Shown: positions 1 through 15,844 of the stretch, one piece after another
How positions within the stretch are numbered: the first letter of the stretch is position 1
Layout: every line of letters begins with the position of its first letter
Source: a virus
Taxonomy: Duplodnaviria; Heunggongvirae; Uroviricota; Caudoviricetes
Virus record (IMG/VR): IMGVR_UViG_2718218131_000010
Span: 1-18,400 of that record
Strand: one strand, 5' to 3'
Length of the DNA: 18,400 nucleotides
Notes under the pieces: model-generated
Databases searched by the model: none
The model's input: only the letters and a program-made list of their open reading frames with translations
What the model was told of the DNA's origin: nothing
Made by a program: the position numbers and the translations under genes

Positions 1-582
1 ATGAAAGGCGAAGTGAAAGAGCGCGGCATGATTTTTAACGATGAGATGGTCCGGGCAATTCTTGGCGGGAATAAAACACAGACTCGCAGGATTGTTGAAG
101 AAAAATTCTATGGACGGGCAGTGGCCGCAGAGTTGCTTGCCAAGCATTGTCCATATGGTCAACCGGGCGATCGTATTTGGGTTCGCGAAACCTACCGGGT
201 ACATGGCAAAGCGACGGACGTCGCAACGCTGGTTTATCGCGCAAGTGTGCGTAACTCCTGGACAGAACAAACGCACCGGGTTCCGGTCGAGGTTTGTAAT
301 AAACCAGTATCAGAAAAGTGGACGCCATCAATTCACATGCCGCGCTGGGCATCGCGCATTCTTCTGGAAATTACCAACGTGCGCGTTGAGCGGTTGAACG
401 ATATCAGCGAATGCGATGCAAGGACTGAGGGCGCACCAACAGAATCGACCCTCATTGGCGATAAGCATTACCCAGGTTTCCGTAGCCTATGGAAATCAAT
501 TTATGGCGAAGATAGTTGGAACGCTAATCCCTGGGTGTGGGTAATCGAGTTTGAGCGTATTCAGGGGGCAACCAGTGAGTGA
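1..582 (+). CDS. ASCH/PUA-like domain protein (possibly 5' truncated at window edge; alternative start at 28)
   Basis: ORF track 193 aa; N-terminal MIFNDEMVRAILGGNKTQTRR...RIWVRETY resembles the ASCH-fold signature (GxKTxExR followed by beta strand). Stop TGA 580-582 overlaps the next gene start. Family assignment from memory of the motif, not a search. Confidence 0.5.
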   Translation: MKGEVKERGMIFNDEMVRAILGGNKTQTRRIVEEKFYGRAVAAELLAKHCPYGQPGDRIWVRETYRVHGKATDVATLVYRASVRNSWTEQTHRVPVEVCNKPVSEKWTPSIHMPRWASRILLEITNVRVERLNDISECDARTEGAPTESTLIGDKHYPGFRSLWKSIYGEDSWNANPWVWVIEFERIQGATSE

Positions 583-835
583 GTCAAAATGCCAAATTAA
601 TGGCAACAAGATAGAACCGTGCGCGGCGTTGGCACAATCCCTGGAGCATGACGCTGAATACACGACGCGAAAAGGTCTGCTGAAATACAAAATCTATAAC
701 CATGAATTAATTCATTCACGAGACCTGATCATGCTGCGGTCTGGTGAATTTTCTAAATCGCCTATTCGAGTTTCATTTTGCCCGTTCTGTGGTGAAAGTC
801 TGAAAACGTGGGAAGCGGAGGCAACCAGTGAGTAA
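575..835 (+). CDS. small Cys-rich (putative zinc-ribbon) protein, GTG start
   Basis: Frame-2 ORF; likely start GTG 575 preceded by GGGGCAACCA (SD-like); contains CxxxxxxxxxC and CPFC pairs; overlaps upstream stop by 8 nt (translational coupling). Confidence 0.4.
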   Translation: MSESKCQINGNKIEPCAALAQSLEHDAEYTTRKGLLKYKIYNHELIHSRDLIMLRSGEFSKSPIRVSFCPFCGESLKTWEAEATSE

Positions 836-1016
836 CCGTTTTTACATGATGTGCTTGCGTGAAACTGTGGGTAATAACGCCTCATTCCATTGCCATAACG
901 GCAATGGTTACAGTTCTTGGCGCGGCGGAAGCGTTTATGATGCAGAAGCATGGCGAGATGGCTATGAAGCAGGGAAAACGCCTGTCGAAGTATATTGTGA
1001 TGAGTGGGGTGGGTGA
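828..1016 (+). CDS. small hypothetical protein (62 aa), GTG start
   Basis: ORF track; GTG 828 preceded by GGAGGCAACCA; stop 1014-1016 abuts ATG 1017 of the next gene. Confidence 0.35.
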   Translation: MSNRFYMMCLRETVGNNASFHCHNGNGYSSWRGGSVYDAEAWRDGYEAGKTPVEVYCDEWGG

Positions 1017-1745
1017 ATGATTTGCCTTCACAACGCAGACTGCTTTGACATCTTTCCGCAAATCGCCAGCAACTCCGTAGATCTTGTATGTGCCGATATT
1101 CCATATGGAACAACTCGGTGTCGCTGGGATTCTGTTCTCGACCTGCAGTTGATGTGGAAGCAGATTTACCGTATTTCCAAACCGAACGCTGCAATTGTTC
1201 TGTTTTCCGCTCAGCCTTTTACCAGCGTGCTGGTCAACAGCAATCTTCGTGACTGGAAAACAGAATGGATTTGGGAAAAGCCACACGCGACAGGATTTTT
1301 GAACGCAAAAAAACAACCTTTAAGAGCGCATGAAAATATTGAAGTTTTTTACAGAAAGCAACCGACATACAACCCACAGATGACGTATGGGCACGCCAGA
1401 AAAACCTCAACAAGAGGTAGGCTGAATACTGATGTATATGGCGATGCGCTGAAAAAGGTCGTTTACGATTCAACAAGTCGCTATCCGAGAGACGTGCAGA
1501 AATTCTCCAGCGACAAGCAAAAGCAGGCACTTCATTCAACACAAAAGTCACTGGCTCTGGTGAGATATCTGATTGAAACATATAGCAATATTGGCGACAC
1601 GGTGTTGGATTTCACTATGGGTAGCGGAACTACTGGCGTTGCGTGCCAACAATCAGGACGCCGATTTACAGGAATAGAAAAAGATCCAGAAATTTTTCGT
1701 ATCGCATTAGAGCGTATGGGAATTAAACAGGAGCATGCAGCATGA
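1017..1745 (+). CDS. DNA N6-adenine/N4-cytosine methyltransferase (PF01555-like, beta class), orphan
   Basis: 242 aa; N-terminal SVDLVCADIPYG (motif IV, DPPY-like) and C-terminal HSTQKSLALVRYLIETYSNIGDTVLDFTMGSGTTGVACQQSGRRFTGIEKD (motif I FxGxG, AdoMet binding). No adjacent restriction endonuclease gene. Confidence 0.85.
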   Translation: MICLHNADCFDIFPQIASNSVDLVCADIPYGTTRCRWDSVLDLQLMWKQIYRISKPNAAIVLFSAQPFTSVLVNSNLRDWKTEWIWEKPHATGFLNAKKQPLRAHENIEVFYRKQPTYNPQMTYGHARKTSTRGRLNTDVYGDALKKVVYDSTSRYPRDVQKFSSDKQKQALHSTQKSLALVRYLIETYSNIGDTVLDFTMGSGTTGVACQQSGRRFTGIEKDPEIFRIALERMGIKQEHAA

Positions 1746-1763
1746 TTTTTGTGGAGGCAACCA

Positions 1764-1946
1764 GTGAGCGAAATTAACTATCAAGAACTGCGCGAGGCGG
1801 CGGAACAGGCAACGCAAGATGAATGGGTAGCATATATTTTGCCGGTCATAACGGCATTTATCCTGCGCGCACGTCTGAGGGTAGGCATTGCGGATACTTT
1901 ATTGACTGGCCTGGCGTCTGTCAGGGGCGGGAGAGCATCAGCATGA
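1764..1946 (+). CDS. small hypothetical protein (60 aa), GTG start; N-terminus paralogous to ORF 2560-2985
   Basis: GTG 1764 preceded by GGAGGCAACCA; first ~12 residues VSEINYQELREAA match VSKIDYQVLREAA of the 2560 gene; stop overlaps ATG 1943 (ATGA). Confidence 0.3.
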   Translation: MSEINYQELREAAEQATQDEWVAYILPVITAFILRARLRVGIADTLLTGLASVRGGRASA

Positions 1947-2563
1947 GCATCAGAACCTACGCAGTGAATTGCAATGACGCATGGCTAAACACCGAAGGTG
2001 ATGACATCTCCGGCTCATACGTTAAGTACAAAGACCATCAGGAAGTGGTTGCCGCTCTTGAGGCCAAGTGCGCGGCGCTGGCAGCGGAGAATGCAAGACT
2101 GAAGGCCGGGGCTATGTATTTCTCATATGGCTCTGAATTTAGTTTCGAGTGTCACAAAACTGCTGAGGAGGCTATCGCTGCTGCTGAGGCTGCAATTGAC
2201 GACTATAGAGGCGATGCTTGCGATGGATGGAGCGAAGAGGTCGAAAGCATTTGCTGGGGGGTAATTATTCAGCAGGCAACCAAGGTCGGTGAACGCAAGA
2301 AGAGGAAATGCGACAGAGTATCACCATGGATTGAAAGAGTTTGTGATTATGAGCTTCGACCTAATGTCGAAACCCCAGCCACCGATGCTTTCCTTGCTGA
2401 AGTTCGGGCGCAGGGCGTGGAGATGCTGGCAAAAAATCATCAAAGTATCGTCAATGCACTTAAGGGGGATTCTTTATTTTCTGATGGTGAATACCGGCAT
2501 GCAATTATCGCTTCCGCAGCAACATCTTTCGCCGCCCAGCTTCGCAAAGGAGGCAACCAGTGA
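1943..2563 (+). CDS. hypothetical protein (206 aa)
   Basis: ATG 1943 with GGGAG about 10 nt upstream; the track ORF 1823-2563 is trimmed to this start; stop TGA 2561-2563 overlaps GTG 2560 of the next gene. Confidence 0.5.
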   Translation: MSIRTYAVNCNDAWLNTEGDDISGSYVKYKDHQEVVAALEAKCAALAAENARLKAGAMYFSYGSEFSFECHKTAEEAIAAAEAAIDDYRGDACDGWSEEVESICWGVIIQQATKVGERKKRKCDRVSPWIERVCDYELRPNVETPATDAFLAEVRAQGVEMLAKNHQSIVNALKGDSLFSDGEYRHAIIASAATSFAAQLRKGGNQ

Positions 2564-2985
2564 GCAAGATTGACTATCAGGTACTGCGTGAGGCAGCAGT
2601 AGCAATTGAAACAGTAGCAACGCCTCAAAAATTGCTGGCATTTCGTATGAAAGTCACACCTCAGGTTGTGCTGGCACTACTGGATGAACGGGAAGCAGAC
2701 AAAAAGCGCATTGCAGAACTGGAAGCTCGGGAAATAAAACCAGCCAAAGGTGAAGTTCTTGTCGTTGTTTCTGGTTTTACTGGTTGCGGAAAAAGCGCCA
2801 TTGCCGGGGAAATAGAAATCGCGATGAAGGCTATTGGTGTACCGGTTCAGTGGACTAATGGCGATGCAGAAAAGCGCATGACTGGCGCTGACTGGCTGAC
2901 TGCGATTGAGATGTACAAACCAACTGTGCGCATCGTGGAAGTTAATGTGCCCCGCGCCGCAGGCATTCGCATCAAAGGAGAGTGA
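2560..2985 (+). CDS. hypothetical protein (141 aa) with Walker-A-like GFTGCGKS motif
   Basis: GTG start in the conserved GGAGGCAACCAGTGAG junction; motif VVVSGFTGCGKSA fits G-x4-GKS, but the protein is short for an NTPase and no Walker B was seen. Confidence 0.5.
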   Translation: MSKIDYQVLREAAVAIETVATPQKLLAFRMKVTPQVVLALLDEREADKKRIAELEAREIKPAKGEVLVVVSGFTGCGKSAIAGEIEIAMKAIGVPVQWTNGDAEKRMTGADWLTAIEMYKPTVRIVEVNVPRAAGIRIKGE

Positions 2986-2986
2986 T

Positions 2987-3502
2987 ATGGCGTTAACACA
3001 CCACGAACTCTGTCAGATTGCGTACAAGTTCCTTAAGCGCAACGGGTTCAAGGTTTGTTTTCATGACCGCTTTATAGCTGTAACCAGTACCGGAGAACAG
3101 CCAGATGCTATGGGATTCAGAAATTCAGCATCATGCCTGATAGAGGCGAAGTGTTCTCGTGCTGACTTGTTAGCAGATAGAAAAAAGCGTTTTCGTAAAA
3201 ATCCGTCTCTTGGAATGGGCGACTGGCGATTCTTTATTAGTGAGCCGGGAATTATTTCAATTGAGGATTTACCACCTGGCTGGGGGTTACTTCACGTTGT
3301 TAACGGAAGAGTACGGAAAGTACATGGGTGGCCCAAGGGTAATTGCTGTTGGGGTAATCCTGACGATAAGCCATTTACTGGAAATAAGCAGGTTGAATGC
3401 GATTACATGTTATCTGCATTAAGGCGCATGGAGTTGAGAGGGCACCTTAATGAAATATATGACGGTGTAATTGTTAATAAGAAAGAAGGAAACGCGGCAT
3501 GA
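2987..3502 (+). CDS. PD-(D/E)xK nuclease-fold protein (MmcB-like?), 171 aa
   Basis: ATG 2987 with AAAGGAGAG RBS; motif ...GEQPDAMGF...CLIEAKCSRADLL fits a D...(D/E)xK restriction-endonuclease-like core. Family call is tentative. Confidence 0.45.
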   Translation: MALTHHELCQIAYKFLKRNGFKVCFHDRFIAVTSTGEQPDAMGFRNSASCLIEAKCSRADLLADRKKRFRKNPSLGMGDWRFFISEPGIISIEDLPPGWGLLHVVNGRVRKVHGWPKGNCCWGNPDDKPFTGNKQVECDYMLSALRRMELRGHLNEIYDGVIVNKKEGNAA

Positions 3503-4485
3503 TCACTATTACCAAAGAGCGACTACTGACAATCAAGCAGTGGCGCGAAACATACGGACCTGGTAGCAACGTTGTACTGCCAGCAGAAGAAGCGGAAGAA
3601 CTGGCGCGGATTGCACTGGCATCACTGGAAGCAGATCCAGTTGCTTATATTTTCAAACATCCGGCCGGGAAATTATTCTGGGCTTTAACGGATGAAAGCA
3701 ATAAAGAGCAAGCTGACGTTATTCCTGTTTATGCTGCCGCGCCTGCGTCGGTTGTGCCGGATAATGCATCAGAGCCTCTTGCTTATGCTTACAAAGAGCT
3801 TACGCCTGAGATTATGCGCAACCATTTAGCTGTATTCGAGCGATATGGAATAGCCCCAAACGATAGCTCTACCACAATTCAGGCACTGCGAATCGCGCTG
3901 GATGGCATAGAGCGGAGCGGCGCCATGCTTCATGGTGCCGAACCTGTAAGCCAAACTTACAAGTTGCTAGTTAATACACCTTGCCAAGATGCGCCAGCCC
4001 ATATCTGGCTGCAAACAGCTGGAGTATGGCCAGAAGATGGCGAGTTAAGCGAATTAACGTGGTGCAGCCACAATCAGCACCATGATGACACGCTATATGT
4101 TCGAGCTGACCTTGTGAATGGCAACTATCCGGATATTCCGGATAGTTCGGTGCCAGGGCCAGGAAAGGGCGTCACCGGTGAACGTATCCGCATTAAACCG
4201 CATGTTTATCGCGAACTGGTTAACCGTCTCCACGATACAGCGATCAAGTGTGCGGGCACCCAGCAATTACGAGAAAGAATTAGCCGTGTTTTGGGCGACG
4301 TTATTACGCCAGATCATCATAAACAAGCCGAGAAAAGTGGCTTGGAAAGGTGTCACCTTGAGGCGGCATTAAACATTAAGCCGGGGCATACGCTTGGCAT
4401 TATTGATGCACTATTGGTTCATAAGATGGCCAGGGCTTTATTGCCGCTGGTGGATGCTGGCGATACAAGCGAGGGTGAAGTATGA
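3499..4485 (+). CDS. hypothetical protein (328 aa)
   Basis: ORF track; ATGA overlap with upstream stop; AAGAAGGAAACG RBS. Confidence 0.6.
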   Translation: MITITKERLLTIKQWRETYGPGSNVVLPAEEAEELARIALASLEADPVAYIFKHPAGKLFWALTDESNKEQADVIPVYAAAPASVVPDNASEPLAYAYKELTPEIMRNHLAVFERYGIAPNDSSTTIQALRIALDGIERSGAMLHGAEPVSQTYKLLVNTPCQDAPAHIWLQTAGVWPEDGELSELTWCSHNQHHDDTLYVRADLVNGNYPDIPDSSVPGPGKGVTGERIRIKPHVYRELVNRLHDTAIKCAGTQQLRERISRVLGDVITPDHHKQAEKSGLERCHLEAALNIKPGHTLGIIDALLVHKMARALLPLVDAGDTSEGEV

Positions 4486-4844
4486 GAGTTGCAGATCACA
4501 TCAAACACCTTGAAAGAATTATCGAAAACGGTGAACTCTTAAGAGATCAGATGAGACGCACGGCAGAAGTCAGAGAGGCGATAATCCGCAGTCAGGCTGG
4601 TAAATTAAAGCAATTGTCAGAGATTAACGCGCTATACAAGAACAGACGTAACCGGGCGGCGCTGCGGCTTCAGAAAGCACGTAATGAAATTAAATTGGTG
4701 GAGGCAAAACTGAAAAAACAGATTCAGCGTTACGATCAGCAAGATGCTTTTTATGCCGCCATCAAGGCGGCTGCTAATGAAATAGGCATCTGGAAGTTGC
4801 TGGTGGAGAAAGCAAAGACGAAGTTAAATGCCAACGAAAGCTGA
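4482..4844 (+). CDS. hypothetical coiled-coil protein (120 aa)
   Basis: ORF track; ATGA overlap with upstream gene; K/R/E-rich heptad-like composition. Confidence 0.55.
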   Translation: MRVADHIKHLERIIENGELLRDQMRRTAEVREAIIRSQAGKLKQLSEINALYKNRRNRAALRLQKARNEIKLVEAKLKKQIQRYDQQDAFYAAIKAAANEIGIWKLLVEKAKTKLNANES

Positions 4845-4918
4845 ACTACAGGTACCCACCAGCACATACAGAAAATGATTGTTTCCACATCAAGGAGATT
4901 TTAATGTTTCACTGAACA

Positions 4919-5056
4919 TTAAGTAAGCCAGTGCATAATTCCATTTTTTACTGACCTTAAAAGCAAAATCAAAACGATGATGAGGATGATCGCCAGAATC
5001 TGGCTAATAACAGGCGCATCTAAAAATGCACTCAGGAACTGAAAAAAAGCAGTCAT
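4919..5056 (-). CDS. candidate 45-aa hydrophobic single-TM peptide (MTAFFQFLSAFLDAPVISQILAIILIIVLILLLRSVKNGIMHWLT)
   Basis: Hand-translated minus-strand ORF below the 60-aa track cutoff; ATG at 5056-5054 with AGGA 9 nt upstream; one strongly hydrophobic helix followed by basic residues; stop at 4921-4919. Confidence 0.3.
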   Translation of the reverse strand: MTAFFQFLSAFLDAPVISQILAIILIIVLILLLRSVKNGIMHWLT

Positions 5057-5097
5057 TAAGGTGGTTCCTTGTCAAATGTAAAGGAGCACTTGCTCAC

Positions 5098-5126
5098 GTT
5101 GACGTAGAAACCCAACCCCTATATAG
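5098..5126 (+). promoter_or_regulatory. near-consensus sigma70 promoter (TTGACG-17 bp-TATAGT)
   Basis: -35 TTGACG 5098-5103, 17-bp spacer, -10 TATAGT 5121-5126; divergent from the small peptide gene; may drive hot via a long leader or a small RNA/ORF (5155-5352). Confidence 0.4.
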
Positions 5127-5505
5127 TTGGATTCGGTGAAAGAAAGTCGTTAACGTGAGCTTACGGCACATGTTTTCGGAACAACATCAGGGAACGGCTA
5201 ATTCCTTGATGCGGATGGGGTCTGTAATGCAGACCCTATCTATTAACGTCATGATTGCATCTCAAATTTTCTCCTTATCTTCATTAATCAAAATTCATTT
5301 CATTTGTGAAACATCACAATATTTAGAAAATGGCCCTCTTGCAAGTGCATAACTTTGTGGATAAATCAGGAAGAAAAAAGTTGATTCTGCGCACGGCAAG
5401 GCAGATAAGCTGTGCACAAAAATCAATGGGAGAAGAAAAAAAATTAAAAGTTACTTTGCTGGTTAAATAATAGTCGTTACTCAATTATTCTGGATGGGAT
5501 TTGAT

Positions 5506-5757
5506 ATGCACGATTGGAATATTGCAGCTAAAAGTCAGGAAGAACGGGATAAGGTTAACGTTGATCTGGCTGCCAGCGGTGTGGCGTACAAAGAGCGATT
5601 GAACATACCTGTCATAGCTGAACAGGTAGCCCGCGAGCAACCAGAGAATCTGCGCACCTATTTCATGGAACGGCTACGGCACTACCGGCAGTTAAGCCTC
5701 CAGTTGCCAAAAGGGAGCGATCCGGCATATCAGAAAGATGATGCCGTAAAGAAATAG
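5506..5757 (+). CDS. hot: Hot, homolog of DNA polymerase III theta subunit (HolE)
   Basis: [43 protein letters not shown] closely parallels E. coli HolE ([43 protein letters not shown]). Start at 5506 preferred (GGGA SD); in-frame alternative ATG at 5494. Confidence 0.85.
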
Positions 5758-5763
5758 CGGTAG

Positions 5764-6336
5764 TTAACCGTTTTGAACTTCTCGTATCCTGGCAATGACA
5801 GCTTCATGTTGGGCTTGGATAGCGGCTTTTTCGTTTTCAAGTCGGGCAATAGACATCTCTAATTCTTTGCTGTACCAGGCGAGTTGGGCCAGGTTCATCC
5901 GGTTGTGGTCGAGAGTTGGAGACACTTCGACGCGATCCCTTTCTTCCTGTTTTAATGAGAAGAGATTCATCTCATCCCTTGAGGAAAATTCAGCAACAAT
6001 TTCTTGTTGATGATCCGGTCGCTGCGGCATCCTCGCCAGTATAAATGGCGGTTCTTTTGAAAACATGAATGTCGGTTCAGAACGTGTTTTCACCCATCTA
6101 GCCTGCTGTCTTTCGGCAAGTTCACAGGCTTCATCATAGTTATTTGCCAAACCAAGCACGGATGGACGGTCCCACGCGCCACCATTCAGACAATAAACAA
6201 CAATTTTCCCGTCATGTTCTGTAACCCCATAGGGATGGTCCCACCAGGCGTCCAGCTGAGCTTTAGAGCGTTTCTCGTTAGGAGTGCAGTCAAAATTTTT
6301 GGGCAATACAGGATCGAGAGGAATGCGATTAGGCAT
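5764..6336 (-). CDS. hypothetical protein (190 aa), divergent from humD; position matches P1 lxr
   Basis: ORF track; lies between hot and humD as in the P1 gene order hot-lxr-humD (recalled, not verified by sequence). Confidence 0.55.
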   Translation of the reverse strand: MPNRIPLDPVLPKNFDCTPNEKRSKAQLDAWWDHPYGVTEHDGKIVVYCLNGGAWDRPSVLGLANNYDEACELAERQQARWVKTRSEPTFMFSKEPPFILARMPQRPDHQQEIVAEFSSRDEMNLFSLKQEERDRVEVSPTLDHNRMNLAQLAWYSKELEMSIARLENEKAAIQAQHEAVIARIREVQNG

Positions 6337-6471
6337 AGCTAATTCCTTATTAACTGATTGGCAACGAGGTTACGCTGATCCGTTGGTGATGAATAGTAGC
6401 AAAGAGCACAAAATCATCAGCGGTGGTTGATGTACGTAACGCGTTTGCACCAAAGGTGTCCCTTTAATGTA

Positions 6472-6491
6472 TACTGTATAAATGAACAGTA
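6472..6491. promoter_or_regulatory. LexA (SOS) box TACTGTATAAATGAACAGTA
   Basis: Matches the CTGT-N8-ACAG consensus exactly; 20 bp upstream of humD ATG; overlaps a TATAAA/TATACT -10 candidate with TTGCAC as a possible -35 at 6445-6450. Confidence 0.85.
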
Positions 6492-6510
6492 TTATTGAGG
6501 TGAAAACGCT

Positions 6511-6900
6511 ATGGGCTTCCCTTCTCCTGCGGCGGATTATGTTGAAAGCAGAATTTCTCTTGATCAGCAACTAATCAGGCATCCATCAGCGACCTACTTC
6601 ATGCGGGCGGCAGACAGCCATCACCGTGAGGGAATATTGCAGGGTGCTTTGCTGGTGGTTGATTCCTCGCTTACTCCGGTTGATGGTTCGCTGCTTGTCT
6701 GCGCTATGGAGGGTGAATATCGCATAAAGAGATACCGAAAGTATCCGCGCCAGCACCTGGAGGATTTAAGCACCGGGAAGAAAGAGGCGTTACCAGTAGA
6801 TGACGATGGTTACACGGGTAGTAATGCCGTGTTTGGTGTGATCACTCATGTCATCAATGATGCCCGGAGTGGGGAGTTTGATGATTGTCCGGTCATTTAA
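6511..6900 (+). CDS. humD: HumD, UmuD' homolog (translesion synthesis accessory)
   Basis: 129 aa; UmuD-like peptidase S24 C-terminal region (LLVCAMEGEYRIKRY...VFGVITHVIN); LexA box immediately upstream. Confidence 0.9.
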   Translation: MGFPSPAADYVESRISLDQQLIRHPSATYFMRAADSHHREGILQGALLVVDSSLTPVDGSLLVCAMEGEYRIKRYRKYPRQHLEDLSTGKKEALPVDDDGYTGSNAVFGVITHVINDARSGEFDDCPVI

Positions 6901-6972
6901 GCTGCAAAGTGCTGGTGCTTTATGCCTGTGAAGTTTATAATTGTGTACACATAACGAGTACACGAGGTGTTT

Positions 6973-7194
6973 ATGCAATCCATTAACTTCCGTACCGCGC
7001 GCGGCAACCTTTCTGAAGTGCTCAACAATGTTGAAGCCGGGGAAGAGGTTGAAATCACCCGCAGAGGCCGTGAGCCAGCAGTAATTGTCAGCAAGGCTAC
7101 TTTTGAAGCCTACAAAAAAGCGGCGCTGGATGCTGAATTTGCATCCCTGTTTGACACCCTGGACTCCACCAACAAGGAACTGGTTAACCGATAA
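6973..7194 (+). CDS. phd: Phd antitoxin (prevent host death)
   Basis: [49 protein letters not shown]... matches P1 Phd; TAATG overlap with doc. Confidence 0.95.
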
Positions 7195-7574
7195 TGAGGC
7201 ATATATCACCGGAAGAACTTATTGCGCTTCATGATGCGAATATAAACCGCTACGGCGGCTTGCCGGGAATGTCAGATCCGGGTAGGGCAGAGGCCATTAT
7301 CGGGAGAGTTCAGGCCAGAGTTGCCTACGAAGAGATCACCGACCTTTTCGAAGTCTCCGCCACCTACCTGGTGGCTACAGCGAGAGGGCATATATTCAAT
7401 GATGCCAATAAGCGTACCGCGCTAAACAGTGCGCTGTTATTTCTACGCCGTAACGGGGTGCAGGTATTTGATTCACCTGAACTGGCAGACCTTACTGTAG
7501 GCGCTGCGACTGGCGAGATATCTGTATCTTCTGTCGCCGACACGTTACGTAGATTGTATGGTTCTGCGGAGTAG
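7194..7574 (+). CDS. doc: Doc toxin (death on curing, Fic-fold kinase)
   Basis: 126 aa [22 protein letters not shown]...[11 protein letters not shown]... matches P1 Doc; 1-nt overlap with the phd stop. Confidence 0.95.
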
Positions 7575-7578
7575 ATTA

Positions 7579-7758
7579 ATGGCACGCAAATACAACAAAT
7601 TGTCCCGTGAAGCGTTAAAGATGCTTCTTGATGGCGTGAGTCGCCGCAAGGTAAAGCAATACCTGGTTGGTAAGCAAATTGGTGCCAGGACCGCTATTGC
7701 TGTGTTATGCCGTCAGGAAATGGTTGTGCTTAAACAGAGAATGCCGGGCAGCAGATAA
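7579..7758 (+). CDS. pdcA: small basic protein downstream of doc (pdcA by synteny)
   Basis: ATG 7579 with GGAG 7 nt upstream (track ORF begins at 7558 inside doc); symbol assigned from P1 gene order only. Confidence 0.5.
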   Translation: MARKYNKLSREALKMLLDGVSRRKVKQYLVGKQIGARTAIAVLCRQEMVVLKQRMPGSR

Positions 7759-7785
7759 AGCCCAATCAGTGATGAAAGGTGTGAT

Positions 7786-8829
7786 GTGAAAGCCGTAATT
7801 ACTCCCTTTGTACAAAAAGTGCTTGGCGTCGCCACATTCAAAGTGGATCAGGAAGTCAGAAAGCTGGTGGAGGCTGGCCGTAAATTTATTATGGAGCCGG
7901 TGCCGCGTGAGTTAATCGAGCACATGGACGACGGCCTCGTTGTTTCCGAGCAAACTATGGCAACAAATGAGGCGTTGCAGCCGTTTTTTAACAGCGATGA
8001 ACTGTTTCGCCGTATTGGTGGAATTGACTCGCTGGTGGCGTGGTTGCGCAGGAAAGAGGGGCAATGCCAGGCCGCAGATCGTAGTTGGTGTGACAACCAT
8101 ATTGTCCACGCTGAACGAGACAATAGCGCGGTGTTGTTGTGCTGGCATCACGATAACCATTACCGGATGCGTGGTTTTAATGAGCTGAAAGAAACGCTGC
8201 ATAATAATCGCGTTAACTGGATACTGGATGTCGCCCGTCAGGAAATGGGGCTTTCAGATGGCCATGATTTAAGTATTCAGGAACTGTGCTGGTGGGCTTT
8301 CATGCGCAACATGATGCACCTGATGCCGGAAGAAGTTTGCCGTATATCAATAAATAAGATGAAAGCCGCAACGCAGGATAGCGGACCTCTGAAAGAGGCG
8401 GATATTCGCCCGTATGACGATCGCGCTACAGCATATGTTCAGATGATGGAAGAACGCGCCGCGCCGATGCGTGCAAAAGTATGCCCTGTGGATGTAGACT
8501 CCGACCCTGGCATGGCGCATTTCAAAATACCAAAACTTCAATCGCTAAAATTGCCCGAGTACATGGACTTTGTGGCTTCCCGTCCATGCTGTGGCTGTGG
8601 AGCTGCGGGAGCTGGCGCTCACATTACGCCTTATATCGTTCGTCATAGTCGATTATGCGCGCATGACATTTATGCTATTCCTCTGTGCCAGTCATGCCAG
8701 CGTGATATTGAGCGTGACCTCGATAATTGGGAGAAGACGCACGGTAGGCTGGCGATGCATCAACGATTGTTCTTTGATTACGCGCTTGGAGTCGGCGCTA
8801 TCACAAGTCACTCGTCGAGCGTTAGATAA
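7786..8829 (+). CDS. pdcB: hypothetical protein 347 aa (pdcB by synteny); C-terminal Cys/His-rich region
   Basis: GTG start 7786 with AAAGG RBS; C-terminus contains [12 protein letters not shown]...C...H...C..C, a possible metal-binding/HNH-like region; symbol from P1 gene order. Confidence 0.6.
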
Positions 8830-8830
8830 A

Positions 8831-8847
8831 ATTGCTCTAATGTATTG
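8831..8847 (+). promoter_or_regulatory. C1 repressor operator-like site upstream of lpa (ATTGCTCTAATGTATTG)
   Basis: 13/17 match to the P1 C1 operator consensus ATTGCTCTAATAAATTT, including the invariant ATTGCTCTAAT core. Confidence 0.6.
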
Positions 8848-8917
8848 CTATTTCTTTAATCGAGGGTATTATATTCCACGTTGATTAGTTGACATGGGCT
8901 AATCAGTAGGTGACAGG

Positions 8918-9370
8918 ATGTTACTTAACTGGCAGGGACGCCACTTCATGGAAATAAATCACTCACGAATAACATCGTACGAGATTGCGGATTACATGAT
9001 CCGCACTAAATCTCTTCTATCAGCGAAAGAACTCGCAGCAATTCTTGAAAAGGAATACCCGCATCTGGATGTCGATAAGCGCGATGTTTATCTGCGCTTA
9101 AAGGCTATCGCTGTGTCTAAGTATTCGTCTGTTTTGATTGATGACAGTACACGCCCACGTAGATTTCAGATCCACTCTCTGAATCCTGAATTCTTTCGCC
9201 GCAGCCGCGCTCCGCGCCGGTTTGATGAAAAACTCCAGAACGAACTCTATATGACGCAGGACGAAAAGGAACGCCGGGAGCACCAGCCTTGGGTAATGGC
9301 GCGTCAACTTTTCAATAAGGTGGCCCGTCAGCACCGTCATTACGGTAATGCCACATCCGCACGTATCTGA
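8918..9370 (+). CDS. lpa: Lpa, late promoter activator
   Basis: 150-aa ORF directly preceded by a C1 operator and followed by pacA, as in P1; AGGTGA RBS before ATG 8918. Confidence 0.75.
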   Translation: MLLNWQGRHFMEINHSRITSYEIADYMIRTKSLLSAKELAAILEKEYPHLDVDKRDVYLRLKAIAVSKYSSVLIDDSTRPRRFQIHSLNPEFFRRSRAPRRFDEKLQNELYMTQDEKERREHQPWVMARQLFNKVARQHRHYGNATSARI

Positions 9371-9380
9371 TTGATTGCTT

Positions 9381-9399
9381 GCCCGTTCCGGGCCTTTTG
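9381..9399 (+). terminator. putative rho-independent terminator after lpa
   Basis: GCCCG-TTC-CGGGC stem-loop followed by CTTTTG. Confidence 0.4.
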
Positions 9400-9455
9400 A
9401 CATGTGACTTTCGTTACCCTCGCGTCAAAAAGAGTTTTTACGAAAGGAAGCATAA

Positions 9456-10649
9456 GTGACCTGGGACGATCACAAGAAGAATTTTGCTCGCCTGGCGCGA
9501 GATGGTGGTTACACCATCGCACAGTATGCCGCCGAGTTTAATCTTAACCCTAATACCGCACGTCGTTATCTCCGTGCCTTCAAAGAAGACACCAGGACTA
9601 CGGACAGCCGCAAGCCAAATAAGCCAGTCAGGAAGCCACTAAAAAGCATGATCATTGATCACTCTAATGATCAACATGCAGGTGATCACATTGCGGCTGA
9701 AATAGCGGAAAAACAAAGAGTTAATGCCGTTGTCAGTGCCGCAGTCGAGAATGTGAAGCGCCAAAATAAGCGCATAAATGATCGTTCAGATGATCATGAC
9801 GTGATCACCCGCGCCCACCGGACCTTACGTGATCGCCTGGAACGCGACACCCTGGATGATGATGGTGAACGCTTTGAATTCGAAGTTGGCGATTACCTGA
9901 TAGATAACGTTGAAGCGCGGAAGGCCGCGCGCGCTATGTTGCGTCGGTCCGGGGCCGATGTTCTGGAAACCACTCTTCTGGAAAAGTCTCTTTCTCATCT
10001 CCTTATGCTGGAGAATGCCAGGGATACGTGTATTCGCCTGGTGCAGGAAATGCGCGATCAGCAAAAAGACGATGATGAAGGTACTCCGCCTGAATACCGT
10101 ATCGCGAGCATGCTAAACAGCTGTTCCGCGCAGATAAGCAGCCTGATCAACACCATTTACAGCATCCGGAATAACTATCGAAAAGAAAGCCGGGAGGCGG
10201 AAAAGCACGCTTTGTCTATGGGGCAAGCTGGCATTGTTAAGCTGGCATACGAACGAAAGCGTGAAAATAACTGGTCAGTGCTGGAAGCAGCTGAATTCAT
10301 CGAGGCGCATGGCGGGAAAGTTCCGCCCCTGATGCTGGAGCAAATCAAAGCCGATCTGCGTGCTCCTAAGACCAATACCGATGATGAGGAAAGGCAGACA
10401 GCCGTCGGCGGCCCTTCTCTTGAAGATCTGGACAAAGTTGCGCGAGAACGGGCCGCCAACCGCCGCGCCGATGCCGCATTGTGGATTGAGCAGCGTAGGG
10501 AAGAAATCGCCGATATCGTTGATACAGGCGGTTATGGAGATGTTGATACTGAAGGTGTATCAAACGACCCATGGCTGGAACAAGACCTGGACGAAGACGA
10601 GGAGGAAGACGAAGAAGTTACCCGCAAGCTATACGGGGATGATGATTAA
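9456..10649 (+). CDS. pacA: PacA, terminase small/pac-recognition subunit
   Basis: 397 aa; contains the pac site internally; acidic C-terminal tail; GTG start with AAGGAAG RBS. Confidence 0.9.
9649..9807. other. pac packaging site: 4 + 3 TGATC(A/G) hexamers with Dam GATC cores
   Basis: TGATCA at 9649, 9656, 9668, 9683 and TGATCG/TGATCA at 9779, 9791, 9802 inside pacA; matches the known bipartite P1 pac architecture. Confidence 0.85.
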
Positions 10650-12133
10650 TGGCCAGAAGTTGCGTAACGGATCCACGTTGGCGCGAGCTGGTGGCGCTAT
10701 ATCGTTATGACTGGATTGCGGCCGCTGATGTTTTGTTTGGGAAGACACCAACCTGGCAGCAGGATGAGATCATTGAGTCCACGCAGCAGGACGGCAGTTG
10801 GACAAGTGTGACCTCCGGCCATGGTACTGGTAAGTCGGATATGACGAGTATCATTGCAATACTCTTCATCATGTTTTTCCCCGGCGCTCGCGTCATTCTG
10901 GTCGCTAACAAAAGACAGCAAGTCCTTGATGGTATTTTCAAATATATAAAGAGCAATTGGGCTACTGCTGTTAGCAGATTCCCGTGGTTGTCGAAGTATT
11001 TCATTCTTACAGAAACGTCTTTTTTTGAGGTGACTGGCAAGGGTGTTTGGACAATATTGATAAAGTCCTGTCGCCCCGGAAATGAGGAGGCGTTGGCTGG
11101 TGAACACGCCGATCATCTCTTGTATATCATCGACGAAGCGTCGGGTGTGAGTGATAAAGCATTCAGTGTGATAACAGGTGCGCTGACCGGTAAGGATAAC
11201 CGTATTCTGCTTCTTTCCCAGCCTACGCGACCTTCAGGCTATTTCTACGATTCACACCACAGACTAGCTATTCGCCCGGGAAATCCTGATGGATTGTTTA
11301 CTGCGATAATACTGAATAGTGAAGAATCTCCGCTTGTAGATGCAAAATTTATACGAGCAAAACTTGCGGAGTATGGCGGTCGTGATAACCCCATGTACAT
11401 GATCAAAGTACGTGGTGAATTTCCCAAATCTCAAGATGGCTTTCTTCTTGGTCGTGATGAGGTTGAGCGGGCGACGCGGCGAAAGGTCAAGATTGCCAAA
11501 GGATGGGGCTGGGTTGCATGTGTTGACGTTGCTGGTGGCACAGGACGAGATAAGTCCGTTATTAATATCATGATGGTGTCCGGCCAGCGAAATAAACGCC
11601 GTGTAATCAACTATCGTATGCTGGAATACACAGACGTTACAGAAACGCAGTTAGCCGCCAAGATTTTCGCAGAATGTAACCCAGAACGGTTCCCGAACAT
11701 AACCATAGCTATTGATGGCGATGGCTTGGGGAAATCGACGGCTGATCTGATGTACGAACGCTATGGTATTACCGTCCAGCGTATCCGCTGGGGTAAAAAG
11801 ATGCACAGCCGTGAAGATAAAAGCCTTTATTTCGATATGCGCGCTTTCGCGAATATTCAGGCGGCAGAAGCTGTAAAATCAGGGCGTATGCGGCTTGATA
11901 AGGGGGCTGCGACTATAGAGGAAGCATCAAAGATACCGGTCGGGATAAATTCCGCAGGTCAATGGAAGGTGATGTCAAAGGAAGATATGAAGAAAAAACT
12001 CAACCTGCACTCACCGGACCATTGGGATACATATTGTTTCGCTATGTTGGCGAACTATGTACCCCAAGATGAAGTGCTTAGCGTCGAAGACGAAGCGCAG
12101 GTTGATGAAGCTCTGGCATGGCTTAATGAGTAA
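10649..12133 (+). CDS. pacB: PacB, terminase large subunit
   Basis: 494 aa; start overlaps the pacA stop (TAATG); position and size as in P1. Confidence 0.9.
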
Positions 12134-12136
12134 AAA

Positions 12137-12153
12137 CTTGCTCTAATAAATTG
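12137..12153 (+). promoter_or_regulatory. C1 operator-like site (CTTGCTCTAATAAATTG)
   Basis: 15/17 match to the C1 operator consensus; sits 4 bp after the pacB stop at the head of the antirepressor module. Confidence 0.65.
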
Positions 12154-12154
12154 T

Positions 12155-12310
12155 GTTTTTTTGGCTGCCGATGTTACATTGAACCTGAACTCTTGCGCCT
12201 TGAGGCATTTTCGGTTTATGCTTATCAGGCACCTCATTAAAACGGGTGCCGGGATTGGAACCCCGGATAATGCAAAAGGCGACACAGACGCCAAAAGCGT
12301 CTTTTTTTGT
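12155..12310 (+). ncRNA. candidate C1-controlled small RNA or leader segment ending at an intrinsic terminator
   Basis: No ORF; contains GGCUGCC (12164-12170) and a hairpin CCGGG-AUUGGAAC-CCCGG (12249-12266); ends with GACGC-CAAAA-GCGTC followed by T7 (12287-12308). Confidence 0.3.
12287..12308 (+). terminator. rho-independent terminator (GACGCCAAAAGCGTC + TTTTTTT)
   Basis: 5-bp GC stem, 5-nt loop, 7 T run; flanked by GACACA / TGTGTC extending the stem. Confidence 0.6.
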
Positions 12311-12339
12311 GTCATGCCATCGCACAGCCATACGTAGCA

Positions 12340-12493
12340 CATAGCTCCGAGATCAATGGTAGTGCTGGCTGGGCTGCCGAAAGGCAGGCCGGTTCCCTTT
12401 TGCGCCGGTAGTTCCAACCCAGTCAGTGCTACCGCCATTGAGATTGGAACCTCACGCGGTAGCTCCTAAAGTTAGCAAAAGGAGGCTGCCATT
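12340..12493 (+). promoter_or_regulatory. structured leader upstream of the icd-like ORF with anti-SD and kissing-loop elements
   Basis: Local hairpin CUGCC-GAAA-GGCAG (12373-12387); hairpin CGGTAG...CTACCG with GUUCCAAC in its loop (12405-12435); second AUUGGAACC (12443-12451); GGCUGCC overlapping the SD GGAGG (12481-12490). Confidence 0.4.
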
Positions 12494-12715
12494 ATGGCTA
12501 CTATCCCTACCCCAACTCACCCTGAATTTATCTGGCGCTTTTACTCCTGCCAGAAACGTCACTATCACTTCGTTATCGCAACAACAGAAGATGAGGCCCG
12601 CTCTCAGCTTCCTGACGCCCCATGTATTTTCTCTGCCCGTTTTTCCACTGATTCACGCAATTCTCTCAGTTACTGGTGCCTCCCTGTTAACGCTTCTGCT
12701 CAGGAGGGACTATGA
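12494..12715 (+). CDS. small ORF translationally coupled to the antirepressor (icd-like position)
   Basis: 73 aa; GGAGG 8 nt upstream; stop TGA overlaps the ant ATG (ATGA), the same coupling architecture as icd-ant in P1 immI. Confidence 0.45.
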   Translation: MATIPTPTHPEFIWRFYSCQKRHYHFVIATTEDEARSQLPDAPCIFSARFSTDSRNSLSYWCLPVNASAQEGL

Positions 12716-13824
12716 GAACGTCATTAGTCACCCGTGAAGAGATGATCGAGGCAATTGAACGGCACACTGCCTGTATCAGTACCAGGGATATACCGGGCGT
12801 TATTGCCAACTACTTCATGATCACCAAACAACTTTACCGGAGAAAGGACAAGAACGCGGTTCACCGCATCCTGCTAACCGATATCCGTGAATACCTGCTC
12901 GAACAGGGTCATCTGAATTACGCAACCGTCGCAGCCGAAGCACGCAAGGAGGCACACAGAATGAAAGCAACTAACGTTAAATCAGAAAAAATTCATGCAC
13001 CTTCAGTTCAGGAATCGGAACTGGTGGTTGTTCAGAATCAGCCGGATGAAATTCCCGTTCTGGAATGGCAGGGAGTACGTGTCGTGACAACCGAAACTCT
13101 TGCTAGAGGGTATGGGGTCGATGAAGCCAATATTCGCAACAATTTGTCTCGCAACCTTGACCGCTTTGAAGAAGGTAAGCATTACTTTCTTCTAACTGGT
13201 TTAAAATTAAGAGAATTTAAGAACAGAGTAACCGGAAGTTACTCTGTTGGTAAGAACGCCAGAAGCCTTACACTCTGGACAGAGCGCGGCGCTGCACGCA
13301 TGTCTAAGATCGTGGACACAAATGAAGCATGGGCATTCTTTGAAAAACTGGAAGACAGCTACTTCCGGCAAAAAGAACAGCAACCGGTTGCAATCCCCCA
13401 GACGCTTCCAGAAGCTCTGCGCCTGGCTGCCGAACTGGCTGAACAAAAGCAGCTTCTGGAACAGAAAGCCCACCAGCTAAATCAGCAGCTGGTGGCCGCC
13501 GCTCCTAAAGTCGATTTTGCCGACCGGGTATCAGTAGCTAAAGGGATCCTGATTGGGAATTTTGCAAAGGTTGTTGGACTTAAGCAAAACGCGCTGTTTG
13601 CCTGGTTACGGGAGAACGGCATCCTGATAGCGTCCGGTGGACGTAAAAATGTGCCGTTCCAGCAGTACATCAATGCGGGGTATTTCACGGTGAAAGAAGT
13701 GGTGCTGGATGATGAAGATGGCTACCAGATACGGTTGACGCCTCAATTAACGGGTAAAGGCCAGCAGTGGTTGACGCGTAAACTGCTCGATGCTGGCTTG
13801 TTAAAACCGGTGGCGGCTGAATAA
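12712..13824 (+). CDS. phage antirepressor (Ant-like; ORF6N N-terminal and KilA-C/ANT C-terminal domains)
   Basis: 370 aa; VRVVTTETLARGYGVDEANIRNNLSRNLDRFEEGKHYF...LTLWTERGAARMSKIVDTNEAWAFFEKL (ORF6N-like) and FAKVVGLKQNALFAWLRENGIL...VPFQQYINAGYFTVKE (KilA-C/ANT-like). Confidence 0.75.
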   Translation: MRTSLVTREEMIEAIERHTACISTRDIPGVIANYFMITKQLYRRKDKNAVHRILLTDIREYLLEQGHLNYATVAAEARKEAHRMKATNVKSEKIHAPSVQESELVVVQNQPDEIPVLEWQGVRVVTTETLARGYGVDEANIRNNLSRNLDRFEEGKHYFLLTGLKLREFKNRVTGSYSVGKNARSLTLWTERGAARMSKIVDTNEAWAFFEKLEDSYFRQKEQQPVAIPQTLPEALRLAAELAEQKQLLEQKAHQLNQQLVAAAPKVDFADRVSVAKGILIGNFAKVVGLKQNALFAWLRENGILIASGGRKNVPFQQYINAGYFTVKEVVLDDEDGYQIRLTPQLTGKGQQWLTRKLLDAGLLKPVAAE

Positions 13825-13833
13825 TGGAAGAAT

Positions 13834-13862
13834 GCCCGGTTGATGCCGGGCATAATTTATTG
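13834..13862. terminator. convergent terminator hairpin between ant-like gene and c1
   Basis: GCCCGG-TTGATG-CCGGGC followed by ATAATTTATT; overlaps the c1 stop codon region. Confidence 0.5.
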
Positions 13863-14708
13863 CGCGCTTTCGGGGTTGTCGTTTACTGGCTGCCCCTTCT
13901 TGGTTTTACGGCTGCGCGTAACTGATGCGGCTGACTTAACCTTTTTCTCTTCGCGAGTGATGGCAATTTGTTTTTTTACATTTTCAATATCTGCCAGGCG
14001 ATATATTTTTGCTTGCGGCCAGCGGTCGCAGATGATCGGTTCTATGGAGTCATAAAGGCTAAATTTTGCTTTTTCGAATTCACCGTTGATGATAATTCCA
14101 TCACGGAGAGTTTCATCGCAGATAAACACGCCACACAGTGGCACATGGTAACTAACTGATTTACCATCATTGTAGTTAGGGCTACTGGAAATGTAGTGGA
14201 CGCGCAGCATTGTTTCGCTAAAGCCGTGTACGCGCATACGGAATTTTTCATCCTCCGGGTACTGCTTCATTAGCTCTTTTGTTGCTTCCAGGTTCTCTAT
14301 GTATTTCGCACTGTGCTCATTGATCCCCGCGCTTTTTTGGATGCGAATGTCCTTATCAATCAGATGAATAATGCGGCCAGCGGTCATGTTGACGCTGTTC
14401 ACAGCTTCTGTCTGATAAGTTGTAACCTTACGCACACCGCGAAGGATGTTAGGCACAGGATATAAAATAGTCTTTGGGATATTGAGATCTGGGTACTGTT
14501 CCAGTTCCCGCGCCATTAAAGTCCATTTATCAATTTCTGCCTGAATGCTGTCCGTTTCTTTGAACGGCAGAACGACAACCGGGCGTACAGGACGACCGTC
14601 GCTGGCGGCATCAACGTGTTGGGCGCGTGCAACAGCTTTTTTTAGAAAGAGATCCCTGAAGCTGACGAACTCCTGGTACAGTTGTTCGCCGTAGACATAA
14701 TTTATCAT
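13857..14708 (-). CDS. c1: C1 repressor of lysogeny
   Basis: 283 aa MINYVYGEQLYQEFVSFRDLFLKK... matches P1 C1 as recalled; multiple C1 operators in the vicinity. Confidence 0.95.
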   Translation of the reverse strand: MINYVYGEQLYQEFVSFRDLFLKKAVARAQHVDAASDGRPVRPVVVLPFKETDSIQAEIDKWTLMARELEQYPDLNIPKTILYPVPNILRGVRKVTTYQTEAVNSVNMTAGRIIHLIDKDIRIQKSAGINEHSAKYIENLEATKELMKQYPEDEKFRMRVHGFSETMLRVHYISSSPNYNDGKSVSYHVPLCGVFICDETLRDGIIINGEFEKAKFSLYDSIEPIICDRWPQAKIYRLADIENVKKQIAITREEKKVKSAASVTRSRKTKKGQPVNDNPESAQ

Positions 14709-14802
14709 TGATCCTCCTCCAGAATTGACATGGCCAACAACTCACAGCGGATAACACTGAGAGTTGTTGGGCACCATTATAGAAGGATCTAACGAAAATA
14801 AT

Positions 14803-14819
14803 AGATTTATTAGTGCATT
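14803..14819 (-). promoter_or_regulatory. C1 operator-like site between coi and c1
   Basis: Minus-strand AATGCACTAATAAATCT, 14/17 match to the consensus. Confidence 0.5.
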
Positions 14820-14821
14820 TA

Positions 14822-15028
14822 TTATGAGTCTGGCTGGTTAGTGGTCATGAGATATTCAATTGTGTCAGTGAGATCATCTAGGTCGTCGGGGGTGATACGG
14901 TACTCCTGATTGGATATCTTTGAGTAGTGTTCAGCAATGGCGCGAGCAGCGTCGGTTTCGGTGGGATCTACAGATAAAGCGTTAGAGCAATGTCTAACGT
15001 CGTCGATAGTTGGTGGAATGAAAGCCAT
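14822..15028 (-). CDS. coi: Coi, C1 inactivator
   Basis: 68-aa acidic ORF immediately upstream of c1 on the same strand, as in P1 immC. Confidence 0.8.
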   Translation of the reverse strand: MAFIPPTIDDVRHCSNALSVDPTETDAARAIAEHYSKISNQEYRITPDDLDDLTDTIEYLMTTNQPDS

Positions 15029-15250
15029 AATTATGCCTCACTGTATTTACAACACAGAGCCTGAAGCTCTGACCTACTGTTTCACCCATGATCCATGCTG
15101 GGGTTATCTAACAACATTGCGCTGTGTGTAAGATGAGCAATGCATAGCTGTAATGCCCTGTTTGCTCATTTCCTTCTGAGCCGCTCTACAACACTGAAGA
15201 CACATTAAATAGTGAATCCAAAGTCGTATTACGAAACGGCGGCAAAGCTA

Positions 15251-15267
15251 TAATTTATTAGAGCAAT
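15251..15267 (-). promoter_or_regulatory. C1 operator (Op99-type), minus orientation
   Basis: Reverse complement ATTGCTCTAATAAATTA, 16/17 match. Confidence 0.65.
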
Positions 15268-15333
15268 TGTCAAACAACTATGAAAAACAATCCAGTTTTT
15301 GGCTGGTGGAGTGGGATTTTACTCTCAAAATTT

Positions 15334-15837: not shown

Positions 15838-15844
15838 GTGTTAA

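Follow-up and report, generated by a model that had tools for sequence, protein, structure and literature searches.

Background

P1-like phage-plasmids share a hypervariable locus described as 'variable region 8', and the published account of phage JL22 states that 'pmgT was replaced by gp99-gp100-gp101-adsM-ra22-gp104'. In P1 itself, the genes pmgT, pmgU and pmgV have been found non-essential by CRISPR interference (CRISPRi) and by deletion. Here we describe a block of four genes, called A, B, C and D, that lies at this locus in an 18,400-nucleotide stretch of viral DNA (IMG/VR record IMGVR_UViG_2718218131_000010, positions 1 to 18,400), referred to below as the window. The block spans 2560-4844 on the + strand, and all coordinates are those of the whole window.

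Proteins of the Ea22 family have a published layout of an N-terminal segment, a coiled coil and a variable C-terminal domain, and they always end in K/RGE, a motif described as 'of unknown significance'. The Ea22 proteins of lambda and of Shiga toxin (Stx) phages are tetrameric and pro-lysogenic, as shown for those of lambda, phi24B and P27. A 2026 preprint reports that the protein Oad2 binds the OLD defence nuclease of P2 and inhibits it, that relatives of Oad2 are also found fused to Ead/Ea22 proteins, and that a 54%-identical homologue fails against OLD, the activity being allele-specific; it also puts forward the recombination-linked locus of lambdoid phages as a hotspot of anti-immunity. 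In Caulobacter, MmcB is an SOS-induced PD-(D/E)xK endonuclease required for tolerance of mitomycin and cisplatin, that is, of crosslinks.

The four-gene block and its probable origin

We read the block, with confidence a little better than even, as the distal half of the early pmgT/hea operon, with its C1 operator, of an IncY P1-like phage-plasmid, and as a non-essential accessory cassette shuffled by recombination. On the left, A, B and residues 1-146 of C are shared nearly verbatim with Stx lambdoid phages, in their early-left region, which lies between int and the recombination genes; on the right, the last third of C together with D would be the anchor of the P1 lineage, PmgU/PmgV. Loss of C1 repression would lead to expression from a promoter just upstream of the window and to translation as a coupled chain. 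Gene B is predicted to encode a Mg2+-dependent PD-(D/E)xK endonuclease of the DUF1052/MmcB-like structural clade, whose substrates would most likely be damaged or branched DNA, encountered while a phage or plasmid establishes itself, replicates and recombines. Gene A may encode an Ea22-type oligomeric scaffold that presents a small phosphate- or nucleotide-binding-like module, and C and D are putative partner or adaptor proteins. There seems to be no virion-assembly gene among the four. The functions of all four proteins are ones that we infer.

The features on which this reading draws are:

2560-2985, + strand: gene A, GTG start, 141 aa, an Ead/Ea22-family protein.
2749-2961, + strand: C-terminal module of A, about residues 64-134 (~72 aa), portable and covered by no Pfam family.
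2974-2986, + strand: module junction AAAGGAGAGTGAT, which encodes the terminal K-G-E and stop of A and doubles as the Shine-Dalgarno sequence for B.
2987-3502, + strand: gene B, ATG start, 171 aa, a protein with a predicted PD-(D/E)xK endonuclease fold.
3499-4485, + strand: gene C, 328 aa, a mosaic EaA-like protein.
4482-4844, + strand: gene D, 120 aa, equal to P1 PmgV.
4119-4844, + strand: right-hand anchor in common with reference P1, made up of the PmgU-equivalent 3' part of C and D (97.5% nucleotide identity, blastn of P1 against the window).

The first-pass annotation had placed four open reading frames (ORFs) here, upstream of hot, and had described them as translationally coupled, and both statements held. 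The ORF at 1943-2563 overlaps the start of A as GTGA, as read from the sequence; a single nucleotide lies between A and B, and AAAGGAG stands 6 nt 5' of the ATG of B; and ATGA overlaps join both B to C and C to D. A mechanical ORF list had prolonged B in the 5' direction to a TTG at 2906. The N-termini of homologues agree with the starts of A, B and C used here, and the matches are strong (E-values of 4e-81 for A and 4e-116 for B, with PHROG matches as low as 9e-123). Because homologues with the same N-termini are numerous, A to D are taken as genuine genes rather than chance ORFs. The RefSeq starts in NZ_CP148475.1 (2605, 3167 and 3625) are judged late from these N-termini and from the ribosome-binding sites, by 15, 60 and 42 codons for A, B and C respectively; they cut into the Ead domain of A and drop the first helix and the conserved D27 and D40 of nuclease B. 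Base composition is 45-52% GC throughout, with no sharp boundary of foreign DNA, and an Rfam scan found no RNA families inside 2560-4844.

The carrier element and control of the operon

The first 5.5 kb of the window are 100% identical to plasmid pZ1323CEC0005_1-2 (NZ_CP148475.1), a non-mobilizable IncY plasmid from a chicken E. coli. The block is 98.9% identical to that of the P1-like phage JL22, where the same genes are annotated ra22, gp104, eaA and pmgV, and about 97% identical to that of P7, where they are Upf88.3-90.8 of the 'hea operon'. The locus is flanked by pap upstream and by upfN/O-hot-lxr-humD-phd-doc downstream.

In NZ_CP148475.1 the operator ATTGCTCTAATAAATAT lies 179-195 nt 5' of window base 1 and agrees with P1 Op88 at 16 of 17 positions. 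In P1, the C1 operator Op88/OpmgT (ATTGCTCTAATAAATCT) has the same position and overlaps the pmgT promoters, and the P7 record annotates this site as the operator of the 'hea operon'. Within window 1-4844 there were no promoter-like sites on the + strand, and terminator-like sites were not enriched. Genes A to D would then be at the distal end of a single early transcript, one under repression in lysogens; because a C1 operator lies over the promoter, by homology to P1 Op88, the operon should be silent there.

Ahead of the first operon gene, and after the promoter that C1 controls, there is a conserved hydrophobic ORF of 28 codons (MNTAFKIIMAAIYFWLFSITFGGIVAHG), 9-95 nt 5' of window base 1 (plasmid excerpt 2906-2992). 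It is also present in P1 (P1 excerpt 4202-4288), where the stretch of the P1 reference record listed carries no coding-sequence feature for it.

A predicted nuclease shared by phages and plasmids

Gene B corresponds to Upf89.0 of P7 and gp104 of JL22 and has 324 detectable homologues across Enterobacterales. The nuclease-like core noticed in the first-pass annotation is borne out as PD-(D/E)xK by motif conservation and predicted fold. Residues D40, E53 and K55 (the 'PD...EAK' core) are invariant in 35 homologues, as are the motifs GDWRF, GWGLL, KPF and NK..EC. The AlphaFold2 (AF2) model of B, with a mean predicted local distance difference test (pLDDT) of 85 and a predicted template modelling score (pTM) of 0.80, has an alpha-beta-beta-beta-alpha-beta core in which D40 stands at the start of beta2 (strand 41-45) and E53-x-K55 at the end of beta3 (strand 48-54). 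This fold is similar to those of solved PD-(D/E)xK members, and the closest structure, 3dnx, shares a motif with B after the ExK. In a profile search with B, 3dnx (SPO1766) also came first, at E=0.31, aligned on E-x-K-x-SR-x-D..AD.K; a PDB sequence search gave nothing significant. 3dnx is the structure for DUF1052/PF06319, the family to which we take Caulobacter MmcB to belong. The placement of B beside DUF1052, presumably MmcB-like, is suggested by the model and is new here.

B occurs in 927 of 5,426 complete E. coli genomes (17%), chiefly in chromosomal prophages, and in 295 plasmids, 107 of them conjugative. Stx phages carry the window from about 2529 to 3932 at 96.6% identity, in the order gam-recT-exo-ssb ... 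Ea22-like gene, B, DUF551 protein ... int. In lambdoid prophages of Lonsdalea and Morganella, B sits between NinB and NinG in the nin region, and in Salmonella an Ead N-terminus is fused to it. A discrete 540-bp B cassette is found on the IncI2 plasmid NZ_KY012275.1, where positions 6988-7527 match window 2974-3513 at 95.6% identity, and the homology begins exactly at the AAAGGAGAGTGAT junction (2974) and ends 11 nt beyond the stop of B (3513). Conjugative resistance plasmids of the IncI2 group have this cassette beside a HicAB module, about 3 kb from mobC and the relaxase gene, possibly within the leading region. Vibrio phages and phages of the Kuttervirus/Limestonevirus type, the latter of which we take to be virulent Ackermannviridae, encode homologues of 30-55% identity.

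Read with the established layout of lambdoid operons, all of these contexts would be expressed early after DNA entry or derepression, and several stand beside recombination genes; the IncI2 case is conjecture. Because of these early, recombination-adjacent contexts, a role for B in DNA repair or recombination during establishment is favoured.

Some candidate associations of B were rejected. The upstream part of the window and a Salmonella prophage with the Ead::B fusion seemed to share a gene order (193 aa followed by about 82 aa), and the 193-aa proteins proved unrelated (E=0.64). A 170-aa gene near a distant homologue of the A module (locus L012) was considered as a partner and is not a homologue of B. 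A restriction-modification pair made of B and the methyltransferase upstream was dropped because B is mostly found without a methyltransferase.

An Ea22-family protein with a Walker-A module

Gene A passes the cutoff of Pfam PF13935 (Ead_Ea22) over residues 2-57 (E=6.3e-10; 40.2 bits, cutoff 27) and matches PHROG 250 and 11761. Thousands of its homologues are named 'ead/Ea22-like family protein', which is also the NCBI name for its near-identical relatives. The protein consists of an N-terminal Ead domain, a very short putative coiled-coil linker of about 15 residues, the C-terminal module and a terminal KGE; in the alignment, its homologues hold 28-76 more coiled-coil residues. Its C-terminus, ...AAGIRIKGE, carries the terminal K/RGE motif of the Ea22 family. 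These features argue that A is a bona fide Ea22-family member, and it would be early and non-essential.

The Walker-A-like GFTGCGKS pointed out in the first-pass annotation is present (residues 72-79, nt 2773-2796) and conserved in homologues. HMMER against 1.84 billion representatives placed the module in 447 clusters at 50% identity, in proteins of 110-623 aa and at either terminus. This diversity comes from the search of representatives; a separate search with the C-terminal domain of A listed only matches of at least 94% identity. Among 35 module sequences down to 55% identity, GxTGxGKS, EIEI, W, EK, T, DW, E, Y.P and the E of VRIVE are invariant. VRIVE, an hhhhE segment with its invariant E127 located 48 residues after the Walker-A motif, would be a candidate Walker-B motif of A. 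In the two distant module carriers whose contigs were inspected, the neighbours are phage-type or integrase-linked genes.

APS_kinase, AAA_16 and FtsY gave sub-threshold matches to A, each anchored on the Walker-A motif. The AF2 model of the module (pLDDT 82.5) predicts a helix from the Walker-A lysine onward, and neither profile nor structure recognises in it a P-loop NTPase alpha/beta core of five or more strands. Judged from its sequence, the Walker-A motif is real and conserved, and the module would not be a canonical P-loop NTPase. The PDB sequence search with A gave nothing significant, the solved C-terminal domain of lambda Ea22 included.

The 3' end of A (GCAGGCATTCGCATCAAAGGAGAGTGA, window 2959-2986) agrees at 26 of 27 nt with GCTGGCATTCGCATCAAAGGAGAGTGA, which is identical among lambda ea22, P7 upf88.3 and JL22 ra22. 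Its K/RGE codons, AAA GGA GAG, are at the same time the Shine-Dalgarno sequence of the coupled next gene. The K/RGE motif of Ea22 proteins may thus be explained simply as a conserved module junction that contains the Shine-Dalgarno sequence of the next gene, a suggestion that is new here.

Genes C and D and the deletion scar in P1

Residues 218-328 of C are identical to P1 PmgU at 104 of 111 positions (94%), so that PmgU is here a domain of a larger protein and not a separate gene. Residues 1-146 are common to DUF551-type proteins of Stx phages. By tblastn, the modules 1-26, 1-54, 46-73, 46-146 and 200-328 recur separately in different phages, all but the last of them in lambdoid or P22-like 'EaA'/DUF551 proteins. 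D is identical to P1 PmgV in 120 of 120 residues, with the same flanks and the same position before upfM-O/hot, and it matches PHROG 4403 (E=7e-78). It is confined to P1-like phages and elements, save for matches of about 35% identity in three Klebsiella phage records, and, for the coiled coil that the first-pass annotation proposed, gives only weak matches to coiled-coil families; we regard it as a lineage-specific helical protein.

The first-pass annotation had called the four genes devoid of a confident functional assignment and beyond placing by eye. The former stands for experimental function. Of the four, three can now be placed and one in part; A passes PF13935, D is PmgV at 100%, and the end of C is PmgU at 94%.

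Residues 1-232 of P1 pmgT correspond to the first gene of the window (1-582). When P1 is compared with the window, homology jumps from about 536 to 4119 over 8 filler bases (P1 excerpt 4298-5367), so that P1 pmgT runs out in another reading frame across the 3' part of C. Reference P1 is without about 3.6 kb (~537-4118) of the window, which comprise the methyltransferase, both Ea22-like genes, B and two-thirds of C. The comparison indicates that P1 pmgT is a chimera and pmgU an in-frame remnant of C, together the deletion scar of the cassette, which is new here. In PLSDB, pmgV is found in 199 plasmids and the P1-type pmgT junction in only 5.

The name 'pmg' is a positional label only. The first-pass annotation had held that homology to P1 genes such as the pmgT-V equivalents would speak for a non-defence role. 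That homology was found, and it does not establish such a role, because 'pmg' is positional and the genes are dispensable in P1.

Neighbouring genes and an Oad2-like protein

The remaining features around the block are:

1-2563, + strand: proximal part of the operon, with a homologue of the PmgT N-terminal part, small ORFs, a methyltransferase, an Ead N-terminal ORF and an Oad2-like ORF.
1-582, + strand: homologue of the N-terminal part of PmgT, the first gene of the window.
1017-1745, + strand: N6/N4 DNA methyltransferase, in the proximal part of the operon.
1764-1946, + strand: Ead N-terminal ORF, 60 aa, PHROG 14804 (E=6e-41).
1943-2563, + strand: Oad2-like ORF, 206 aa, directly 5' of A.
5494-5757: hot, 87 aa, a theta homologue, after the block.

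The ORF at 1943-2563 is 31% identical to gp27 of HK446 (Oad2), with E-values of 3e-12 in pairwise BLASTP and 6e-10 in tblastn. The blocks that the two have in common are LAAENA, VETPATDAFLAEVRAQ and a terminal QLRKGGNQ. The ORF overlaps the Ead N-terminal ORF 1764-1946 as ATGA, and the pair looks like an Ea22-like gene that has been split.

Between pmgV and hot, the minus strand holds a strongly hydrophobic ORF of 45 aa (4919-5056; MTAFFQFLSAFLDAPVISQILAIILIIVLILLLRSVKNGIMHWLT), which is the hypothetical gp107 of JL22 and may encode a small membrane peptide or toxin. Beside it, at 5099-5127 on the + strand, is TTGACG-17-TATAGT, the best sigma-70-like site in this region.

Elsewhere in the window, Rfam families above the gathering score are isrK at 12229-12307 (62.4 bits) and the C4 antisense RNA at 12352-12439 (76.7 bits).

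Alternative explanations

Several results weigh against the view of the block as an early cassette with a repair or recombination nuclease. PF06319 matched neither B nor any of its 35 homologues even at E<=10, and Hjc and AHJR-like families gave B only sub-threshold Pfam matches. The link of B to MmcB would thus be one of structure and motif only, and because the PF06319 model misses B, we class B as a PD-(D/E)xK nuclease with MmcB-like proteins as its nearest structural relatives, not as a demonstrated member of their family. The AF2 model of the A module shows no beta-sheet and has no structural neighbours, P-loop NTPases included. C has no match in Pfam or NCBIfam (both searched with the whole protein and with three segments) or in PDB, nor has D in the same three databases, and neither protein has an informative homologue. 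Control of the operon is reconstructed from P1 and from sequence outside the window. Finally, the contexts in which B occurs fit a counter-defence gene as well, and Oad2, the only experimentally characterised relative of anything in the operon, points to counter-defence rather than DNA repair.

Counter-defence is the first rival: A, B, C and/or D would block or evade host immunity early, and Ea22 N-termini would scaffold interchangeable anti-immunity domains. We consider this possible, on balance doubtful. The upstream ORF 1943-2563, coupled to A, is related at 31% to a demonstrated OLD inhibitor, Oad2 is reported fused to Ead/Ea22 proteins, and B too is found with an Ead N-terminus. The lambdoid recombination-related locus has been proposed as an anti-immunity hotspot, the region here is hypervariable, the operon is probably early and repressed in lysogens and includes an orphan methyltransferase, and on IncI2 plasmids B is near oriT-proximal genes. 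None of A to D resembles a characterised anti-defence protein, however, and a deletion library of P1 saw no antirestriction phenotype for non-essential genes. Since even the Oad2 homologue of 54% identity does not inhibit OLD, a relative of 31% upstream says little about activity. The neighbour seems to lend the anti-defence idea some indirect support, and it assigns no such function to A to D.

It is improbable, in our estimate, that the four genes modulate the lysis-lysogeny decision or host physiology, biasing the phage towards lysogeny in the manner of lambda and Stx Ea22. A does have the Ea22 N-terminal domain and the terminal KGE, and the lambda and Stx proteins are pro-lysogenic tetramers with variable C-terminal domains. 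By PDB sequence search, however, the solved lambda C-terminal domain shows no relation to that of A, and the immunity circuit of P1 is a different one (C1/Coi/Ant). Such a role would also leave B, C and D unexplained, the mechanism of Ea22 itself is not established, and homologues of B occur in phages presumed virulent and without lysogeny (Kuttervirus/Limestonevirus type).

A prophage-encoded defence, or superinfection exclusion from the resident plasmid, is very unlikely. The first-pass annotation had seen here the kind of block in which anti-defence or superinfection-exclusion functions are often found; the hypervariable accessory hotspot is confirmed, and the repression of the operon by C1 that is expected in lysogens, its operator overlapping the promoter, makes exclusion or resident defence unlikely. 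Variable regions of phage-plasmids do frequently hold defence genes, and a nuclease and a methyltransferase in one operon superficially resemble a restriction-modification pair. Most contexts of B are without a methyltransferase, however, and a scan with PADLOC-DB 2.0 gave no defence homology for the four proteins: at E<=0.1 there was no match to a defence protein for A, B and C, and for D only PbeC (E=0.058), taken as coiled-coil noise.

Virion assembly, for which only the historical positional names pmgT, pmgU and pmgV speak, deserves almost no credence. In P1, CRISPRi and deletion show that pmgT/U/V can be spared, which makes a morphogenetic role unlikely. They are also absent from the essential pmg genes found by knock-out, A, B and the N-terminal part of C stem from non-structural early lambdoid regions, and reference P1 makes virions without A, B and two-thirds of C.

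A more far-reaching picture, to which we give little weight, takes the Ead/Ea22 N-terminus as a general scaffold for interchangeable early effector modules. Modules found fused to it or directly after it are Oad2-like proteins, B, the ~72-aa Walker-A module, DUF551 and the lambda C-terminal domain. They would be swapped at the conserved junction …GGCATTCGCATCAAAGGAGAGTGA, where the next gene has its ribosome-binding site; the Walker-A module would then serve as a minimal natural P-loop for a nucleotide or a nucleotide-derived immune signal, and B would be a counter-defence or establishment nuclease, not a repair enzyme. Such a scaffold may extend over temperate phages, phage-plasmids and some conjugative plasmids.

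Significance

The block is common and has already been sequenced many times, and its members are of known kinds (Ea22, PD-(D/E)xK, PmgU/PmgV). What appears to be new here is the ~72-aa Walker-A module as a widespread un-annotated domain, and the Oad2-like neighbour in the same operon. The block matters in that B-type genes are widespread, in E. coli genomes, on about 300 plasmids including IncI2 resistance plasmids, and in Stx-converting phages, and in that Ea22-family proteins influence the development of Stx phages. The annotation of P1 is tidied as well, with a pmgT/pmgU scar, defined module junctions and an Oad2-like gene in the operon. Nucleotide binding by the Walker-A mini-domain, if real, would make it a natural P-loop of unusually small size; otherwise this is ordinary temperate-phage accessory DNA.

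Comparison with known systems

Compared with DUF1052/MmcB-like proteins, B has extra invariant motifs and goes undetected by the PF06319 profile hidden Markov model, and it resides on phages and plasmids of Enterobacterales and Vibrio, not on alphaproteobacterial chromosomes. The A module resembles P-loop NTPases in having GxxGxGKS after a hydrophobic strand-like segment, a helix predicted from the lysine, and a candidate Walker-B segment (hhhhE) downstream.

With the Ead/Ea22 family (lambda Ea22, the Stx-phage variants, P22 Ead), A shares the N-terminal Ead domain, a variable C-terminal domain and the K/RGE end, and a putative coiled coil would stand between the two domains. It differs in this putative coiled coil being of only about 15 residues and in bearing the Walker-A module in place of the lambda C-terminal domain; it also lies in a P1-type operon, whereas lambda ea22 lies between exo and xis. 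The ORF 1943-2563 follows an Ead N-terminal ORF, which echoes the Ead::Oad2 fusions of the Oad2 (HK446 gp27)/P22 EaE group. It is only 31% identical to Oad2, has large insertions, and stands outside the four genes.

The pmgT-pmgU-pmgV operon of P1, the 'hea' operon of P7 (Upf86.8-Upf90.8) and region 6 of JL22 are alike in locus, operator, promoter and flanks. In P1, window ~537-4118 is missing and pmgT is the first gene fused to an out-of-frame piece of C; P7 has another Ead C-terminal domain and a longer C; and JL22 has the block without the Oad2-like gene pair.

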